DNA of 64,000 nucleotides, from assembly GCF_016026235.1 (NCBI RefSeq), contig NZ_CP065613.1; one strand, given 5' to 3'. Positions 3,951 to 19,602 of the stretch are shown here, one piece after another. The notes below the pieces were generated by a model. That model worked only from the letters and a program-made list of their open reading frames with translations. It was not told where the DNA came from and ran no database searches. The DNA comes from Escherichia coli. GTDB taxonomy: Bacteria; Pseudomonadota; Gammaproteobacteria; Enterobacterales; Enterobacteriaceae. How positions within the stretch are numbered: the first letter of the stretch is position 1; each line of letters opens with the position of its first letter. The translations under genes and the position numbers were made by a program.

Positions 3951-4505
3951 TTATTTTAAAGAAAGTAATTGTTCCACAGTCATATTTTTAATTGCGCCCC
4001 GGTTAACAAGAGTCCATCCCTGTTTTTCCAGATAAAACCGGAAAGTCTCCAGGGTACAGACCAGTGCGCCATCAGGAACGGTTTCGGTGAATTCGACATT
4101 GCCGAATTTGTCGAAGTGAACAACCAGAGTGCGACCATCACCCGGAATCATCTTGTCAGCAGGTGGGGTGTTATTCTGGCGCAGTTCGGCCTCCATGCGG
4201 TCGAACTCAGCAATGTAGGCTTCCTTGAATGCGGCGGCTTTTTTGCCAGTGAAGCCCATCATCAGGAAAACGAAGCCGTTTTTGGTGATTTGGTACATTG
4301 GGCGTTTTTCGCCTTTGGCGTCGGTATAGGTGACGGGCTTAAAATTAAGCCGGTTAAACTCCGGCGAGCATTCGAGAGTTTCGATCTTCTGAATAACGTT
4401 TTTGTGCATTTTCCGGAAGAACTTCGCAACCGCAACAGACGTAGTGACAGCGCGACCATTTTCGATGGTTACGTCAGGGTGAGAAAGGGTAAGGATAGTA
4501 GCCAT
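3951..4505 (-). CDS. Rha-family phage regulatory protein
   Basis: Motif TKNGFVFLMMGFTGKKAAAFKEAYIAEFDRME typical of Rha; start taken at internal Met (4505); long ORF extends to 4799. Confidence 0.6.
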   Translation of the reverse strand: MATILTLSHPDVTIENGRAVTTSVAVAKFFRKMHKNVIQKIETLECSPEFNRLNFKPVTYTDAKGEKRPMYQITKNGFVFLMMGFTGKKAAAFKEAYIAEFDRMEAELRQNNTPPADKMIPGDGRTLVVHFDKFGNVEFTETVPDGALVCTLETFRFYLEKQGWTLVNRGAIKNMTVEQLLSLK

Positions 4506-4670
4506 GATGGCAGCCTCGATAGTCAGTTTAAATAACTCACCACCAGAGGTAGCAATCTCATGGGTGGTGAGACGCACAGGGTTGCTACAACCGGTGACTA
4601 CCGAAACCGGCCAGCCTTGCGGCTGCCCTGCACGCCCCACCATAATCTGAATGTGGCTGTGCTTGACGCA

Positions 4671-4694
4671 TAAAAAAACCGCCTGAGCGCGGTT
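4671..4694 (-). terminator. Intrinsic terminator (minus strand)
   Basis: Stem aaccgc/gcggtt with 6-nt loop followed by a 7-A run on plus strand (U-run on minus transcript). Confidence 0.45.
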
Positions 4695-4821
4695 ATGCGC
4701 AGTAGTCATCGTCGGGGTAGCAATCCCGGCCCCCGTTTTATGAGGTGCAGGTGCACTATAATTCCACCCGTTCTGGTTTTCAATAGCTACATTCAACATT
4801 TTCTCTCACCTTTCATCACCG

Positions 4822-9777: not shown

Positions 9778-10464
9778 ATGACCCCAATAAACATATTTAT
9801 GACAGTTGCTGATTTCAAACGGCCCAAATTGGAGCTCCCAAACGGGGCAAACAAACTACTACTGCACTCTTGCTGTGCTCCATGTTCCGGTGAGGTGATG
9901 GAGGCGCTTCAGGCCTCGGGAATCGACTACACCATCTTTTTCTACAACCCGAACATTCATCCTCAGAAAGAGTATTTAATTCGTAAGGATGAGAATATTC
10001 GCTTTGCTGAACAACACGGCGTGCCGTTTATTGATGCTGATTACGACACAGACAACTGGTTTGAACGAGCCAAAGGAATGGAATGGGAGCCCGAACGAGG
10101 GATCCGTTGCACCATGTGTTTTGACATGCGTTTTGAGCGGACAGCGCTGTACGCCGCTGAAAATGGTTTCAGTGTGATCAGCAGTTCACTGGGCATTTCA
10201 CGCTGGAAAAATATGCAGCAGGTTAACGACTGTGGGCGGCGAGCCGTCGCGCATTATCCGGGCATGGTGTACTGGGATTATAACTGGCGCAAGCAGGGCG
10301 GCTCGTCCCGTATGATTGAAATCAGCAAGCGCGAAAAATTCTATCAGCAGGAATATTGTGGCTGTGTGTATTCTCTGCGCGATACCAATCTACACCGCAA
10401 ATCTCAGGGACGCCCTCTTATCAAAATTGGTCAACTCCACTACGGTAAAGAAGAGAAGGAGTGA
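9778..10464 (+). CDS. QueH-like (DUF208) epoxyqueuosine-reductase family protein
   Basis: 228 aa; motifs [11 protein letters not shown] and CGC recalled as typical of QueH/DUF208. Confidence 0.65.
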
Positions 10465-10691
10465 TTTTATGGGGCACCTTTCTGATTGATTTCATATTGG
10501 CGAGGTAAGTAGAATGACTGCGGGTGCTTGAGGCTATCTGCTTCAGGCATGAACACCAAAAGGCAGATAGAGAAAAGCCCCAGTTAACATTACGCGTCCG
10601 GCAAGACGCTTAACATTAATCTGAGGCCAATTTCATGCTTTGCACATGTAGGTTAGCCTCTTACATGCCGAAAGGCAAGGAGAAGCAGGCT

Positions 10692-10847
10692 ATGAAGCAG
10701 CAAAAGGCGATGTTAATCGCCCTGATCGTCATCTGTTTAACCGTCATAGTGACGGCACTGGTAACGAGGAAAGACCTCTGTGAGGTACGAATCCGAACCG
10801 GCCAGACGGAGGTCGCTGTCTTCGTAGACTACGAATCCAGGAAGTAA
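10692..10847 (+). CDS. hok: Hok/Gef-family type I toxin
   Basis: 51 aa MKQQKAMLIALIVICLTVIVTALVTRKDLCEVRIRTGQTEVAVF, near-canonical Hok; in-frame upstream extension from 10635 may be mok-like. Confidence 0.8.
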   Translation: MKQQKAMLIALIVICLTVIVTALVTRKDLCEVRIRTGQTEVAVFVDYESRK

Positions 10848-13052: not shown

Positions 13053-13129
13053 GGCCCTTTAGCTCAGTTGGTCAGAGCGAGCGACTCATAATCGCCAGGT
13101 CGCTGGTTCAAGTCCAGCAAGGGCCACCA
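13053..13129 (+). tRNA. tRNA-Ile2 (anticodon CAU; could also be read as Met)
   Basis: Hand-folded cloverleaf; anticodon loop ctCATaa; close to E. coli ileX-type from memory; ends CCA. Confidence 0.8.
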
Positions 13130-13130
13130 A

Positions 13131-13207
13131 CCACCACTAGCTCATCCGGATAGAGCATCAACCTTCTAAGTTGACGGTGCGAGGTTCGAGTCCTCGGTGG
13201 TGGGCCA
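13131..13207 (+). tRNA. tRNA-Arg (anticodon UCU)
   Basis: Acceptor ccaccac/gtggtgg, anticodon loop ctTCTaa, T-arm ggttcgagtcc, 3' GCCA. Confidence 0.75.
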
Positions 13208-13209
13208 GC

Positions 13210-13285
<76 letters not shown>

Positions 13286-13288
13286 TAT

Positions 13289-13363
<75 letters not shown>

Positions 13364-14042: not shown

Positions 14043-14258
14043 ATGTATCAGATGGAAAAAATATCAACAGGCATTGCCTACGGCACCTCCGCCGGCAGTG
14101 CCGGCTACTGGTTTTTGCAGTGGTTGGATCAGGTCAGTCCATCACAGTGGGCTGCGATTGGTGTGCTGGGAAGTCTGCTTCTGGGGCTTCTGACTTATCT
14201 GACGAATCTGTATTTCAAAATAAGAGAAGATAAGCGTAAGGCTGCGAGAGGTGAATAA
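14043..14258 (+). CDS. S: Holin (phage-21-type pinholin, dual-start)
   Basis: 71 aa; Met1/Met4 dual-start motif MYQM; resembles S21 pinholin from memory; stop overlaps endolysin start. Confidence 0.8.
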
Positions 14259-14755
14259 TGTCGCCATCATTACGCAAGGCTGTTGCAGTTGCTATTGGTG
14301 GCGGGGCTGTTGCTATAGCATCTGTGTTAATCACTGGCCCAGGTGGTAACGATGGTCTGGAAGGTGTCAGCTACATACCATACAAAGATATCATTGGTGT
14401 ATGGACTGTATGTCACGGACACACCGGAAAAGACATCATGCCTGGTAAAACGTATACCGAAGCAGAATGCAAAGCTCTCCTGAATAAAGACCTTGCCACT
14501 GTCGCCAGACAAATTAACCCGTACATCAAAGTCGATATACCGGAAACAACGCGCGGCGCTCTTTACTCGTTCGTTTACAACGTGGGCGCTGGCAATTTCA
14601 GAACATCGACGCTTCTTCGCAAAATAAACCAGGGCGATATCAAAGGCGCATGTGACCAGCTACGTCGCTGGACATATGCTGGCGGTAAGCAATGGAAAGG
14701 GCTGATGACCCGTCGTGAGATTGAGCGTGAAGTCTGTTTGTGGGGGCAGCAATGA
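14258..14755 (+). CDS. R: SAR endolysin (lysozyme)
   Basis: 165 aa; Gly/Ala-rich N-terminal SAR segment [20 protein letters not shown] then lysozyme-like domain. Confidence 0.8.
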
Positions 14756-15222
14756 GCAGAGTCACCGCGATTATCTCCGCTCTGGTTATCTGCATCATCG
14801 TCTGCCTGTCATGGGCTGTTAATCATTACCGTGATAACGCCATTACCTACAAAGAGCAGCGCGACAAAAACGCAAGAGAACTGAAGCTGGCGAACGCAAC
14901 CATTACTGACATGCAGCAGCGCCAGCGTGCTGCTGATGCACTCGATGCTAAATACACGAAGGAGTTAGCCAATGCGAAAGCTGAAAATGATGCTCTTCGG
15001 CGCAAGCTTGATAATGGTGGTTGGGTGCTCGTCAAAGGAAAATGCCCTGTGCCATCCTCAGCCGAAACCTCCAGCGCCTCCGGCATGGGCAATGATGCCA
15101 CCGTCGAACTCTCTCCAGTTGCTGGACGAAACGTTCTCGGTATCCGGGACGGAATCATCAGCGACCAGACAGCATTGAGAATGCTTCAGGAGTACATCAG
15201 GATCCAATGCCTTGGGGGGTAG
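14752..15222 (+). CDS. Rz: Rz-like i-spanin
   Basis: N-terminal TM helix then coiled-coil-like region; ATGA overlap with R stop; alternative GTG start 14740. Confidence 0.7.
14972..15178 (+). CDS. Rz1: Rz1-like o-spanin lipoprotein embedded in Rz
   Basis: 68 aa ORF in alternative frame inside Rz; signal peptide with lipobox-like VVGCSS; proline-rich mature part. Confidence 0.7.
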
Positions 15223-15310
15223 CGGTAATTTTACTCATTATCCTTCAAATCAGATTCTGTTGTCAGAGGAATGGGGGAAGCTGGATTCGCAAGAGCTTTT
15301 TATGGGCAGT

Positions 15311-15823
15311 TTAGCTAAAAAAAGGCAACACGAAGCTAAAACTACCAACATAAAGTGCTGACCAGCTAGCAGCTGAAATCAGACTCACTGTATACACTTT
15401 CACTGGATGAAGTTGCAACATTCCTGCCACCAAAGGAGCAATATAACGCAGCACGGCGATAAAGCGCGAAGTGAAAAGTATTGACACAGAGTTATTTTGC
15501 AACTGAAGGCGAACCCGTTCTATTGTATTGGAACGGCTCGATATTATACATGCAAGTTGAGGGATATGCCCAATTATTATACCAAGATGGTAATTAACGA
15601 TAGTACCGCACCATGCGCCACTCATGACCGTGATTCCAGCTTCCCATGGTGAAAGAGTCGTCTTGCTGACTGTAATTACAGTGGCCATCATAATTGATGC
15701 TGGTGGCAATATCGCCGAAATGAGTAAAGTGGATTTTGTGAACGCTATTATAAAAAGAAGCCCCCATAGGCGATATGGATGAAGTACAAAATAGTTCATC
15801 AAAGCATTTATCCACTCCATCAA
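15311..15823 (-). CDS. Polytopic inner-membrane protein (family uncertain)
   Basis: 170 aa with several hydrophobic helices; oppositely oriented between lysis and terminase genes. Confidence 0.45.
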   Translation of the reverse strand: MMEWINALMNYFVLHPYRLWGLLFIIAFTKSTLLISAILPPASIMMATVITVSKTTLSPWEAGITVMSGAWCGTIVNYHLGIIIGHIPQLACIISSRSNTIERVRLQLQNNSVSILFTSRFIAVLRYIAPLVAGMLQLHPVKVYTVSLISAASWSALYVGSFSFVLPFFS

Positions 15824-16017
15824 TGTCTTTCCTTCTGTGAATTTTTCTTTGCTATTTAACCGTGATACGACTTAATTTAGGCTTAAACACCTTACATTTA
15901 CAAGGTACTCCTGTGGGGGGCCCTGCCACGGAGCGTCGCAGGAGTGAGTGATGAGGAAGAATTAAAGCAACCTATTGTGACAGGCAGCGATAACAGTAAA
16001 TCACAGGAAGCATAATC

Positions 16018-16782
16018 ATGGCAAAACCGGACTGGGAGGCCATCGAATCGGCATACCGGGCCGGAGTCCTTAGCCTCCGTGATATAGGCGAGAAATACGG
16101 CGTTACAGAAGGGGCTATCAGGAAGAGGGCCAAAAAGCTTGGTTGGGCACGCAGTGGCGGTACGCAGGTTTGCAAAAATGGTACGCAAAAAAGGAAAGTG
16201 CGTACCAGCAGAAAGCCTGCCATTACTGGCCTTACACAAAAAAGTACGCAACTAAAAACAGAATCTACACCGGATACGAAACCGATACGCGGAATGCGTA
16301 CCGATCCCCCGACTAACCCATTCCAACCCGGTAACCAGCAGGCATTAAAACACGGTGGTTATGCCCGTCGCCTTCTGCTCAAAGATGAGGTGATAGAGGA
16401 CGCTAAAGCGTTGACGCTCGAGGACGAATTATTTCGCCTTCGTGCTAACAACCTTGTCGCTGCAGAGAATATTGGCCGGTGGTTGGTGTCGCTGGAAGAT
16501 GCTAATGGGGACCAGGAAAGGAAGATGCTGATTGAAAATATCAGCGCCGCCGAGAAAGCAATGATGCGCAATACAGTTCGTATTGAGTCCATCGTTGGCA
16601 CGCTTGCGACGGTAGGAAAAATATTTGCTGATACAGCCTACCGCAAGGCCGCCACTGATAAGGTGTCTCTGGAGGCTGATCGTCTTCGCCGTGATGCAGG
16701 TATTGATGATGGCAATGGAGAGCGTGACCTCAATGACTTCTACTCTGACATCCAAACCGACGCTGAATCCGGCTTTACGTAG
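16018..16782 (+). CDS. Terminase small subunit
   Basis: 254 aa; N-terminal HTH-like segment; immediately upstream of large terminase. Confidence 0.65.
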   Translation: MAKPDWEAIESAYRAGVLSLRDIGEKYGVTEGAIRKRAKKLGWARSGGTQVCKNGTQKRKVRTSRKPAITGLTQKSTQLKTESTPDTKPIRGMRTDPPTNPFQPGNQQALKHGGYARRLLLKDEVIEDAKALTLEDELFRLRANNLVAAENIGRWLVSLEDANGDQERKMLIENISAAEKAMMRNTVRIESIVGTLATVGKIFADTAYRKAATDKVSLEADRLRRDAGIDDGNGERDLNDFYSDIQTDAESGFT

Positions 16783-18136
16783 TTTCTGGACTATGCGGGC
16801 ACGTAACAAAGTGCTTTATGGTGGTCGGTCATCGTCAAAATCATGGGATGCCGCTGGCATTGCCATATTTCTGTCGAATAAATACACCCTGCGTTTTTGT
16901 TGTGCCCGTCAGATCCAGAATAAAATCGAAGAGTCGGTGTATACCCTGCTCAAAATTCAGATAGACAGGTTTGGTCTGCGGCACCGTTTCCGTATTCTGA
17001 ACAACAAAATCATAAACCGGGTTACTGGCTCGGAATTTGTTTTTTATGGATTATGGCGCAACATCGAAGAAATTAAGTCACTGGAGGGGATCGATGTGTT
17101 GTGGCTGGAAGAAGCCCACGCACTGACGGAATACCAGTGGAAAATTCTGGAGCCAACGATCCGTAAAGAGGGTTCGGAATGCTGGTTCATATTCAACCCC
17201 GGACTTGTTACTGATTTCGTCTGGCGCAACTTCGTTGTTGATCCGCCCGAAGGCACTCTCATCCGCAAAATTAACTATGACGAAAATCCGTTTCTGTCTG
17301 ACACCATGCTTAAGGTTATCGACGCGGCGCGACGCCGTGATCCGGATGGTTTTAAACATGTGTATGAGGGCGTTCCGGAGTCTGATGATGATGCGGCAAT
17401 CATCAAACTGTCTTGGATAGAAGCCGCAGTGGATGCGCACAAAACGTTAAATTTCGAACCCAGTGGAAGAAAGCGTATTGGCTTTGACGTGGCTGACAGT
17501 GGTACAGATAAGTGCGCTAACGTTTACCGTCACGGATCCGTTGTTTTCTGGGCCGACGAATGGAAGGCCAAAGAAGATGAATTACTGAAGAGCTGCCAGC
17601 GTACTTATCAGGCGGCGCTGGAGCGTGAAGCAGATATTGTTTACGACTCTATCGGTGTTGGTGCGTCTGCCGGTGCTAAATTCTCTGAAATTAACGCTGA
17701 CCGGAAGAGCGAGAACGCATACGCGCGACGTGTGAATTACCAGAGGTTTAACGCCGGTGCTGGTGTGCATGAGCCAGATGACGAGTACAACGGCATCCCC
17801 AACAAAGACTTTTTCGCAAATCTTAAGGCTCAGGCATGGTGGCTGGTGGCTGACCGTTTCAGAAATACGTTTAACGCCATTAACAACGGAGAACAGTATC
17901 CTGTGGATGAGCTGATCAGCATAGATTCTCGTTGTCCGTTGCTTGAAAAGCTGAAACTGGAACTGACAACACCTCATCGTGATTTCGACCGTAACGGACG
18001 TGTGATGGTCGAAAGTAAAAAAGCCCTCGCAAAACGCGAGATACCGTCACCAAACGTTGCTGATGCATTCATTATGGCCTTCGCGCCAATCGATACATCG
18101 CTGGATATCTGGGAACAGCTGGGGAGACAGGCCTGA
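16733..18136 (+). CDS. Terminase large subunit
   Basis: ORF 16625..18136 with ATPase motif LYGGRSSSKSW and nuclease-like C-terminal domain; start ambiguous (16715/16733/16793). Confidence 0.8.
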   Translation: MTSTLTSKPTLNPALRSFWTMRARNKVLYGGRSSSKSWDAAGIAIFLSNKYTLRFCCARQIQNKIEESVYTLLKIQIDRFGLRHRFRILNNKIINRVTGSEFVFYGLWRNIEEIKSLEGIDVLWLEEAHALTEYQWKILEPTIRKEGSECWFIFNPGLVTDFVWRNFVVDPPEGTLIRKINYDENPFLSDTMLKVIDAARRRDPDGFKHVYEGVPESDDDAAIIKLSWIEAAVDAHKTLNFEPSGRKRIGFDVADSGTDKCANVYRHGSVVFWADEWKAKEDELLKSCQRTYQAALEREADIVYDSIGVGASAGAKFSEINADRKSENAYARRVNYQRFNAGAGVHEPDDEYNGIPNKDFFANLKAQAWWLVADRFRNTFNAINNGEQYPVDELISIDSRCPLLEKLKLELTTPHRDFDRNGRVMVESKKALAKREIPSPNVADAFIMAFAPIDTSLDIWEQLGRQA

Positions 18137-19602
18137 TGGCACGAAACAAACAAGCCCTGCGGCGAACTGTGCAGGCCACAGCTGATGGTTATGAGAATTT
18201 TATTGCCCGCGTAGGGATGCAGACACCTAACCAGCACTCAGCATCCACCTACCGGGCTAATTTCACCAGTCGTAACCGCATGCTGGTGGAATGGTCCTAT
18301 CGTTCATCCTGGATCATCGGCGAAGCAGTCGATGCTATCCCGGATGATATGACCCGCAAAGGCATTCGCATCACTTCGGAAATTGATGCAAAAGATCGTG
18401 GCATTCTCGAATCACAACTGGATGAGTTGCAAATCTGGGATGCGCTGAATGACGTGCTGAAATGGTCGCGCCTCTACGGCGGCGCGGTGGGTTTCATCAT
18501 GATTGAGGGGCAGGCACCAATGACCCCGCTGCGACCCGAAACCATCGGTAAGGGCAAGTTTAAGGGGATTCTCCCGCTCGACCGCTGGATGGTCGACCCG
18601 GCACTGACCCGCCGCATTAAAGATATGGGGCCGGACCTGGGTAAACCTGAGTTTTACGATGTGGTGACCACAGCAACGGGAATTCCTGCCTGGCGCATTC
18701 ATCACAGTCGCCTGATTCGCTTTGATGGCGTCACGTTGCCATTTCAGCAGAAGATGACCGAGAACGAATGGGGAATGTCGGTTGTAGAGCGTATCTGGGA
18801 TCGTCTTACCGCGTTCGACAGCGCTACTGTCGGCGCGGCGCAGCTGGTCTACAAGGCGCATTTGCGTACCTACAGCGTGGAGAAGCTACGCGAGCTTATC
18901 GCACTTGGTGGTCCTGCGTATGAAGCGTTGCTGAAGAATATCGACCTGATTCGACAGTTCCAGAGTAATGAAGGCATGACGCTCATGGACTCGCGGGATA
19001 AGTTTGAAACCCATCAGTACAGCTTCAGTGGTCTGGATGACATCCTTTCGCAGTTTGCAGAACAGATTAGTGGCGCTGTTGGTATCCCACTGGTGCGGTT
19101 GTTCGGACAGTCCCCGAAAGGATTTTCTACCGGTGATGCAGACCTTGCCAACTATTACGATCGCATCAGTTCGTTGCAGGAGAGGCGTTTACGTCTTCCG
19201 GTGCGGCGGATACTGGACATCATGCATCGTTCGGAACTTGGCAAGCCGCTGCCGGACGATTTCACGTTTGAGTTTAACCCGCTCTGGCAAATGTCTGATG
19301 TCGATCGCTCAACGGTGGCGTTAAACACCACCAACGCAATCAGTACGGCGCTGGGTGATGGTCTGATGACACTGAAAGCCGCTATGACTGATTTGCGAGA
19401 AAATTCTGACGTAACCGGCATCGGGGCATCCATTACCGACGAGGACATCGAGAATGCCGAAGATGAAGCGCCGCCCGGCATCGGCGAACCTGATGACGAA
19501 CCGCAGGAGCCGTCAGGCGGAAATCCGGTATCGAACCAGCCTACGCAGGATAGCGAGGGCGGTCGGAGACATCGTAAATGGTCGCTACGATGGTTCAAAT
19601 GA
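18136..19602 (+). CDS. Portal protein
   Basis: 488 aa following terminase; acidic C-terminal tail; ATGA-type overlap with terminase stop. Confidence 0.75.
   Translation: MARNKQALRRTVQATADGYENFIARVGMQTPNQHSASTYRANFTSRNRMLVEWSYRSSWIIGEAVDAIPDDMTRKGIRITSEIDAKDRGILESQLDELQIWDALNDVLKWSRLYGGAVGFIMIEGQAPMTPLRPETIGKGKFKGILPLDRWMVDPALTRRIKDMGPDLGKPEFYDVVTTATGIPAWRIHHSRLIRFDGVTLPFQQKMTENEWGMSVVERIWDRLTAFDSATVGAAQLVYKAHLRTYSVEKLRELIALGGPAYEALLKNIDLIRQFQSNEGMTLMDSRDKFETHQYSFSGLDDILSQFAEQISGAVGIPLVRLFGQSPKGFSTGDADLANYYDRISSLQERRLRLPVRRILDIMHRSELGKPLPDDFTFEFNPLWQMSDVDRSTVALNTTNAISTALGDGLMTLKAAMTDLRENSDVTGIGASITDEDIENAEDEAPPGIGEPDDEPQEPSGGNPVSNQPTQDSEGGRRHRKWSLRWFK

Follow-up and report, generated by a model that had tools for sequence, protein, structure and literature searches.

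The window analysed here, a stretch of 64,000 nucleotides of Escherichia coli DNA, carries on its minus strand an open reading frame of 170 codons with a TTG start (15311..15823). A preceding sequence-only reading had reported an ORF of exactly this extent and orientation between lysis and packaging modules, and it was found just so: the flanking genes all lie on the plus strand, Rz ends upstream of it in window coordinates and terS begins beyond it (Table 1). An ATG at 15820 is the start common to all close homologues, including those of Citrobacter, and the gene product is therefore most likely a protein of 169 aa. RefSeq places the start of WP_011069285.1 at the preceding codon, TTG 15823, and labels the protein "DedA family protein" in E. 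coli genomes with identical DNA. The DedA gene is convergent with Rz, divergent from terS and thus antisense to the late transcript.

Table 1. Coordinates of the DedA gene and of the neighbouring features in the window.
Feature	Position	Strand	Basis
P21-type holin	14043-14258	+	Pfam Phage_holin_2_1, 1.5e-35
RrrD lysozyme	14258-14755	+	RefSeq annotation of identical locus
Rz i-spanin	14740-15222	+	Pfam Phage_lysis, 1.2e-28
Rz1-like lipoprotein ORF, embedded in Rz	14972-15178	+	lipobox MVVGC in translation
Lysis cassette, convergent with the DedA gene	14043..15222	+	Pfam, RefSeq of identical locus
Variable cargo ('moron') segment, Rz stop to terS start, 795 bp	15223..16017	.	Klebsiella phage alignment
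Short DedA/VTT-family inner-membrane protein CDS, 169 aa	15311..15820	-	ORF, Pfam PF09335, RefSeq label, conserved ATG, dN/dS, AlphaFold2
Presumed regulatory/promoter region with ribosome-binding site, ~70 nt	15824..15893	-	conserved with gene
terS, small terminase	16018-16782	+	phrog_370 terminase small subunit, 7.5e-95
terL, PBSX-type large terminase	16733-18136	+	RefSeq annotation of identical locus
Packaging genes, 3' side of cargo segment	16018..18136	+	phrog_370, RefSeq annotation of identical locus
Portal	18136-19602	+	flanking-gene annotation

The gene occupies a variable slot. Lysozyme, Rz, terS and terL of the Klebsiella phage ST16-OXA48phi5.2 are homologous to those of the window. 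This homology breaks at the Rz stop codon and restarts at the terS ATG, and the slot enclosed comprises 208 nt with a 45-aa ORF and no DedA gene. The same slot in other E. coli phages and prophages contains small unrelated ORFs or ybcV-type genes. The DedA gene has a GC content of 42.2% (GC3 39%), compared with 49-54% (GC3 46-60%) for lysozyme, Rz, terS, terL and portal. Searches for flanking direct or inverted repeats around the cassette, as a sign of a transposon- or att-type insertion, found none, and no RNA family of Rfam was matched in or adjoining the gene.

In lambda, bor is located after Rz/Rz1 and is oriented against the late operon, whereas lom lies in the tail region. The suggestion that this position typically holds genes such as bor and lom was therefore correct as to a variable cargo slot and as to bor, but not as to lom, since of the two bor alone sits here. 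The role in lysogenic conversion that it implies is plausible for the DedA gene. The DedA gene resembles bor and other lambdoid morons in its position right after Rz/Rz1, its opposite orientation and its envelope product, and it shares with lambdoid morons the absence from otherwise homologous phages and a GC content below that of the flanks. Unlike Bor, which is a small lipoprotein, the present protein is a polytopic inner-membrane protein, and the two are related neither in sequence nor in fold.

Some details were noted at the left edge of the insertion. A 49-codon frame on the plus strand (15212-15361) extends across the stop codon of Rz, and at a matching position a 50-aa ORF overlapping the Rz end is annotated in loci of E. 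coli O157 and of phages. The DNA homology of the frame to these loci ends at about 15266, i.e. after approximately its first 18 codons, and the remaining codons reach into the DedA gene in antisense direction. As the homology stops there, the left edge of the insertion was placed near 15267. The part of the cargo segment that is homologous to the Citrobacter cassettes spans approximately 15298-15893.

The minus-strand ORF is a real gene and no chance frame, because it has a Pfam match, homologues down to approximately 28% identity, a dN/dS of 0.15-0.25 and a confident AlphaFold2 model. The protein matched the Pfam domain VTT_dom (PF09335) with 52.4 bits (cut-off 33.9; E 9.3e-14), over its residues 42-162 and positions 3-121 of the 123 of the model. 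PF09335 was present in all homologues. Thus, the family that had been called uncertain is DedA/VTT, and the prediction of a polytopic membrane protein held. Besides this domain match, the protein is hydrophobic with just three acidic and nine basic residues, and its AlphaFold2 model (72 sequences) is all-helical with a pLDDT of 91 and a pTM of 0.84. The predicted helices are broken at residues 31-40 and 119-121, where the re-entrant tips are expected. As Pfam finds VTT_dom only, the protein is not related to Bor or Lom; a homologue of either was ruled out on this ground and by the all-helical model.

Narrower family models were matched weakly. The E. coli DedA-type model NF008102 of NCBIfam gave 30.7 bits with a cut-off of 236 and the UptA models gave 19.5 and 16 bits with cut-offs of 250 and 300, so that the scores stayed below the equivalog level. 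One PHROG of unknown function was also matched. The PDB, which contains no solved DedA structure, yielded nothing meaningful when searched by sequence and with Foldseek. In the viral structure library BFVD, weak matches to 'SNARE-associated' VTT proteins of giant viruses were obtained.

Among the eight K-12 DedA paralogues taken into a phmmer comparison, the COG0586 proteins ranked first: YabI (E 3.5e-13) was followed by DedA (8.9e-11), YqjA (1.9e-9), YohD (1.2e-6) and YghB (1.6e-5). Scores were lower for YqaA of COG1238 (7.8e-3), and far worse for YdjX (0.09) and YdjZ (0.32) of COG0398. Because of this ranking, the protein was placed in the COG0586 branch. In the scheme of DedA subfamilies, this branch corresponds to undecaprenyl-phosphate flippases (Todor et al., bioRxiv 10.1101/2023.01.04.522824) and includes YqjA, YghB and UptA as proposed flippases driven by the proton motive force. 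COG0398-type DedAs as well as the eukaryotic phospholipid scramblases TMEM41B and VMP1 lack one or both of the arginines at the second tip, whereas the present protein has both.

An exhaustive HMMER scan of 1.84 billion cluster representatives returned only 15 with E ≤ 1e-10, and the subfamily is thus small. The best matches were proteins of approximately 170 aa; behind them came largely DedA-PAP2-LssY_C fusions, together with DedAs of the ordinary length of 200-250 aa. The N-terminal DedA domains of the DedA-PAP2(-LssY_C) fusions were the next-best matches after the short subfamily, with E of approximately 1e-12 to 1e-8. These fusions are multidomain proteins of 500-700 aa with a lipid-phosphate phosphatase domain, while the present protein is a bare, C-terminally shortened domain. 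They have been linked to carrier-lipid recycling (Todor et al., bioRxiv 10.1101/2023.01.04.522824).

YqjA and YghB have four essential residues, E39, D51, R130 and R136, which are grouped at the re-entrant tips, and the acidic E39 and D51 of the first re-entrant helix are thought to bind protons. In UptA, R118 forms bonds with E32 and W146, and the arginines take part in the binding of C55-P at its phosphate head group. These columns were compared in an alignment of 15 short relatives (28-78% identity) and 57 other DedAs. Lysine 29, in the column of YqjA E39, is invariant (15/15), whereas 53 of the 57 other DedAs have glutamate. It is accompanied by an invariant P40, where G is found in 47 of the 57, and by A41 in the column of YqjA D51 (15/15; T, D and others in the remaining DedAs). 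Position 73, the aspartate of a 'GD' motif in 43/57 of the other DedAs, is S or T in the subfamily. The arginines at the tip of the second re-entrant helix are kept: R119 (YqjA R130) is R in 13 and K in two of the 15 proteins, and R125 (YqjA R136) is R in all. Y126 is invariant among the 15 representatives as well, and W153 is conserved across the subfamily. The phosphate-binding half of the site is thus kept, and in the proposed proton-binding half the charge is reversed where K replaces E39 and lost where A replaces D51.

The protein ends at about residue 182 of the 220 residues of YqjA, and hence the subfamily lacks the last helix, which has been implicated in dimerisation by cross-linking data. 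Compared with YabI, DedA, YqjA, YghB and UptA, it thus has the R119/R125 pair, W153 and the G/P framework residues in common. It differs from them by the replacements of E39 with K, G-D51 with P-A and the 'GD' aspartate with S/T, which are all invariant in the subfamily, by the lack of the last transmembrane or dimerisation helix (169 aa compared with 192-254 aa) and by an identity of 17-23%. Furthermore, it is prophage-borne and the others belong to the core genome. Judged by these features, the short subfamily is distinct within the COG0586 branch, with YabI, DedA and YqjA as its nearest relatives, and the protein is a member of the DedA superfamily, yet not a canonical DedA of the undecaprenyl-phosphate flippase type.

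The distribution of the gene was followed in phages, prophages and chromosomes. A DNA search of the phage collection with the gene region gave no match and tblastn gave matches of ≤30% identity only, most of them in records resembling host fragments. Based on these searches, no sequenced free phage carries the DedA gene. A copy with 78% aa identity was found in a prophage of C. youngae in the matching slot and orientation. The holin, the GH19 endolysin and the Nu1/GpA terminase of this prophage are unrelated to the proteins of the window. The C. youngae cassette directly borders on the truncated 3' end of an RrrD-type lysozyme gene (locus L003, 7777-7920, minus strand), behind which lies an Rz gene, although the working endolysin of that phage is the GH19 enzyme. 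This fragment looks like the trace of a module replacement at the cassette boundary. Further copies with 73-74% identity adjoin dinI in three settings: in C. meridianamericanus, in C. freundii beside icd, and on an IMG/VR contig near a Mu-like element.

Together with the gene, about 70 nt upstream of it are common to the window, the C. youngae prophage and the chromosomal copies of C. meridianamericanus and C. amalonaticus. Approximately 12 nt past the stop codon are conserved as well, and the sequences beyond both edges are unrelated. The upstream block, presumably the regulatory region (Table 1), reads GTGTT(T/G)A(A/G)G ... (A/G)ATT(A/G)AG.C ... TTAAAT. It matches positions 7930-8000 of L003 and the same positions of L008 and L010. 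It contains a direct repeat TT(G/A)AG with a spacing of 12 nt, in which the window shows a change of G to A in both copies.

Scans for a sigma-70 consensus promoter upstream of the gene and for an intrinsic terminator downstream of it found neither, and the RNA folding of both intergenic regions gave z-scores of about 0. In this respect the DedA gene differs from bor and other morons, as no promoter or terminator of its own was detected. Inspection of the block by eye for a PhoP box and for a -35/-10 pair showed just a half-site and illegal spacings, and both readings were dropped. Since it holds no legal sigma-70 spacing, the promoter of the DedA gene may depend on an activator.

The lack of a recognisable promoter and terminator would fit a neutral hitch-hiker without function in Shigella, taken up from a Citrobacter-like chromosome by illegitimate recombination and made common as the ipaH prophage became fixed. 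The very high identity of the Shigella copies could likewise reflect recent common descent, and one E. coli genome has an insertion element 47 bp upstream of the start. We consider such neutrality quite improbable, as the dN/dS between the prophage copy and the Citrobacter copies is 0.15-0.25, the upstream block of about 70 nt is conserved along with the gene and a different prophage acquired the gene independently in the corresponding slot. The state of the Shigella copies themselves also speaks against it, with the ORF uninterrupted in 14/14 Shigella-type loci examined despite neighbours broken by insertion sequences.

The prophage of the window ends in an ipaH gene beside ybhB-bio and was on this basis identified as a Shigella/EIEC ipaH prophage. 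The ipaH-type gene (38760-40586, minus strand) encodes a type III effector of 608 aa with an LRR_TTSS domain and a NEL E3 ubiquitin ligase domain. It closes the prophage on the right, behind the tail-fibre genes, and adjoins the ybhB/bio region. The prophage therefore holds at least two cargo genes, the DedA-type gene and ipaH. DNA of the DedA gene was present in 5 of 5426 complete E. coli genomes, in at least one of which (VL40) ipaH ends the same prophage. At least 1000 contigs encode the exact protein, with Shigella sonnei and multispecies Enterobacteriaceae as the named sources, and its cluster includes near-identical proteins of S. flexneri and S. dysenteriae.

An intact ORF with an identity of ≥99.6% was seen in 11 loci of IMG/VR and in three of E. 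coli. IS copies in the same elements break terL, the genes of the tape measure and the baseplate, or the end of Rz. In E. coli VL7S7 (locus L002, 6625-7845), the insertion upstream of the DedA start is an IS911 and lies within the conserved block; the ORF is intact there too. The intact state of the ORF where IS elements broke neighbouring phage genes argues for retention of the DedA gene by selection in the host, an argument weakened by the recent common ancestry of the Shigella copies.

The distant members of the subfamily are single chromosomal genes without phage context. In two lineages, the DedA relative is located 22-87 nt downstream of the gene for an SmvA-like efflux pump of the DHA2 type, from which a TetR regulator gene diverges. 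It is the last gene of this TetR-divergent operon (L025, 3778-6516; L027, 3808-6522). A YgbA_NO gene is adjacent in both loci, and L027 has an MgtE gene in the vicinity. In a third lineage, the relative is found behind the gene of another MFS transporter. The efflux-pump neighbourhood in two or three lineages may be due to shared ancestry, and the closest homologues in Citrobacter and in the prophage are stand-alone genes. An MgtE gene is nearby in three of the chromosomal lineages; a functional link to Mg2+ homeostasis was considered and dropped because the adjacency may be inherited synteny.

Several small prophage-encoded inner-membrane proteins act in superinfection exclusion. An anti-phage protein of this kind would keep incoming phages from injecting their DNA or from using their lysis functions. 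The cargo slot in a prophage, the orientation opposite to the late genes and the inner-membrane product would all fit such a protein. Recurrence in the matching slot of an unrelated prophage would suit it, and a defence benefit would also account for retention in the Shigella lineages. Still, we regard this function as unlikely. No PADLOC-DB model matched the protein (E up to 1), and the distant members are ordinary chromosomal genes, some of them in efflux operons. These chromosomal members share the signature residues, which argues for a cellular rather than a phage-specific activity.

A second alternative concerns interference with the host. The protein might sequester undecaprenyl phosphate or poison the dimers of host DedAs, slow the recycling of cell-wall precursors and in this way modulate lysis or host physiology while the phage develops. 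It has kept the phosphate-binding arginines and lost the acidic residues and the C-terminal helix, and its gene adjoins the lysis cassette. The single-gene lysis proteins of small phages are known to target the lipid II cycle. Nevertheless, this explanation appears highly improbable: the gene is antisense to the late transcript and would not be co-expressed with the lysis genes, and it persists in defective prophages that are no longer able to lyse. Moreover, chromosomal members with the same signature are under purifying selection, which would not be expected for a toxic decoy.

The explanation that we favour, with moderate confidence, is that the DedA gene is a moron benefiting the lysogen and that its product is a proton-uncoupled DedA-type transporter of lipids or carrier lipids. 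It would be an accessory moron of the Shigella/EIEC ipaH lambdoid prophage in a bor-equivalent slot after Rz. From this slot and from the orientation against the late operon, we infer that it would be expressed independently in the lysogen, outside the expression of the lysis and packaging genes. Expression from the repressed prophage is an assumption based on the orientation and on the analogy to other morons. The R119/R125 pair would bind an anionic lipid head group, either a polyprenyl phosphate or pyrophosphate or an anionic phospholipid, and the lipid would be equilibrated across the inner membrane without proton coupling. The homeostasis of the envelope and of carrier lipids, together with the tolerance of cationic agents, would shift to the benefit of the lysogen, and this benefit would account for the persistence of the gene in a decaying prophage.

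DedA proteins have known roles in the tolerance of polymyxin, biocides, alkaline pH and divalent cations. Taken together with the efflux-operon neighbours of the chromosomal relatives, these roles offer a lead towards a tolerance of cationic stresses, by analogy. On the other hand, loss of E39 and D51 abolishes the function of YqjA and YghB, and for this reason the protein could be inactive in transport or act differently.

A more specific version of the transporter explanation seems rather improbable to us. The phage DedA would be rewired by the lysine in place of the proton-binding glutamate, beside the two phosphate-binding arginines, and would move or hold a carrier lipid (undecaprenyl phosphate or pyrophosphate) or an anionic phospholipid in an uncoupled manner, and Shigella would keep it for the supply of carrier lipid to O-antigen, ECA or peptidoglycan synthesis or for the tolerance of cationic defences of the host. 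If true, this would represent an unrecognised class of lysogenic conversion, which acts on lipid topology instead of surface proteins or toxins.

The lambdoid moron architecture in the bor slot is already known, and the family had been named by automated annotation. A literature search for DedA in connection with prophages, morons or Shigella and for WP_011069285.1 yielded nothing relevant. As far as the searchable literature shows, the short subfamily with K29, P40-A41 and S/T73, its repeated capture by temperate phages and its fixation in the Shigella ipaH prophage are undescribed.

Recent work has identified members of the DedA family as the flippases that handle the universal carrier lipid of cell-wall synthesis, and as proteins that determine how well cells tolerate polymyxin and biocides. 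A natural subfamily in which the arginines are kept and the essential glutamate is a lysine offers a ready-made test of the proton-coupling model. As part of an ipaH prophage that is widespread in Shigella, the DedA gene is a candidate envelope-fitness gene on the same prophage as a known virulence effector. If it were silent or neutral, it would be one more moron in a well-known slot.

Further features were observed elsewhere in the window. The early or nin region of the prophage contains a gene for the epoxyqueuosine reductase QueH, a tRNA modification enzyme (9778-10464, plus strand; Pfam 1.9e-65). About 2.6 kb downstream of it, four clustered tRNA genes separate the Q-like region from the holin gene (13053-13363, plus strand): one with a CAT anticodon, Arg-TCT, Thr-TGT and Gly-TCC. 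The CAT-anticodon tRNA is annotated as Ile in RefSeq, and the fourth tRNA of E. coli VL40 is Val, not Gly.

A sok antitoxin RNA was detected with Rfam (10522-10697, plus strand; 117 bits) and indicates a hok/sok-type toxin-antitoxin locus in the prophage; hokD is annotated in related E. coli prophage copies. The 5' part of a Rha/Ash-type regulator ORF (3951-4799) contains matches to C4 antisense RNA (75.7 bits) and isrK (57.6 bits) at 4560-4748 on the minus strand, an arrangement that corresponds to the layout of P1/P7-like immunity RNAs within a lambdoid prophage. Beyond the bio region, a lambda cIII thermoregulator element (56951-57009, minus strand; 88.5 bits) and a match to sRNA-Xcc1 (52311-52399, minus strand) were found, and these suggest a second lambdoid element in the last approximately 12 kb of the window.
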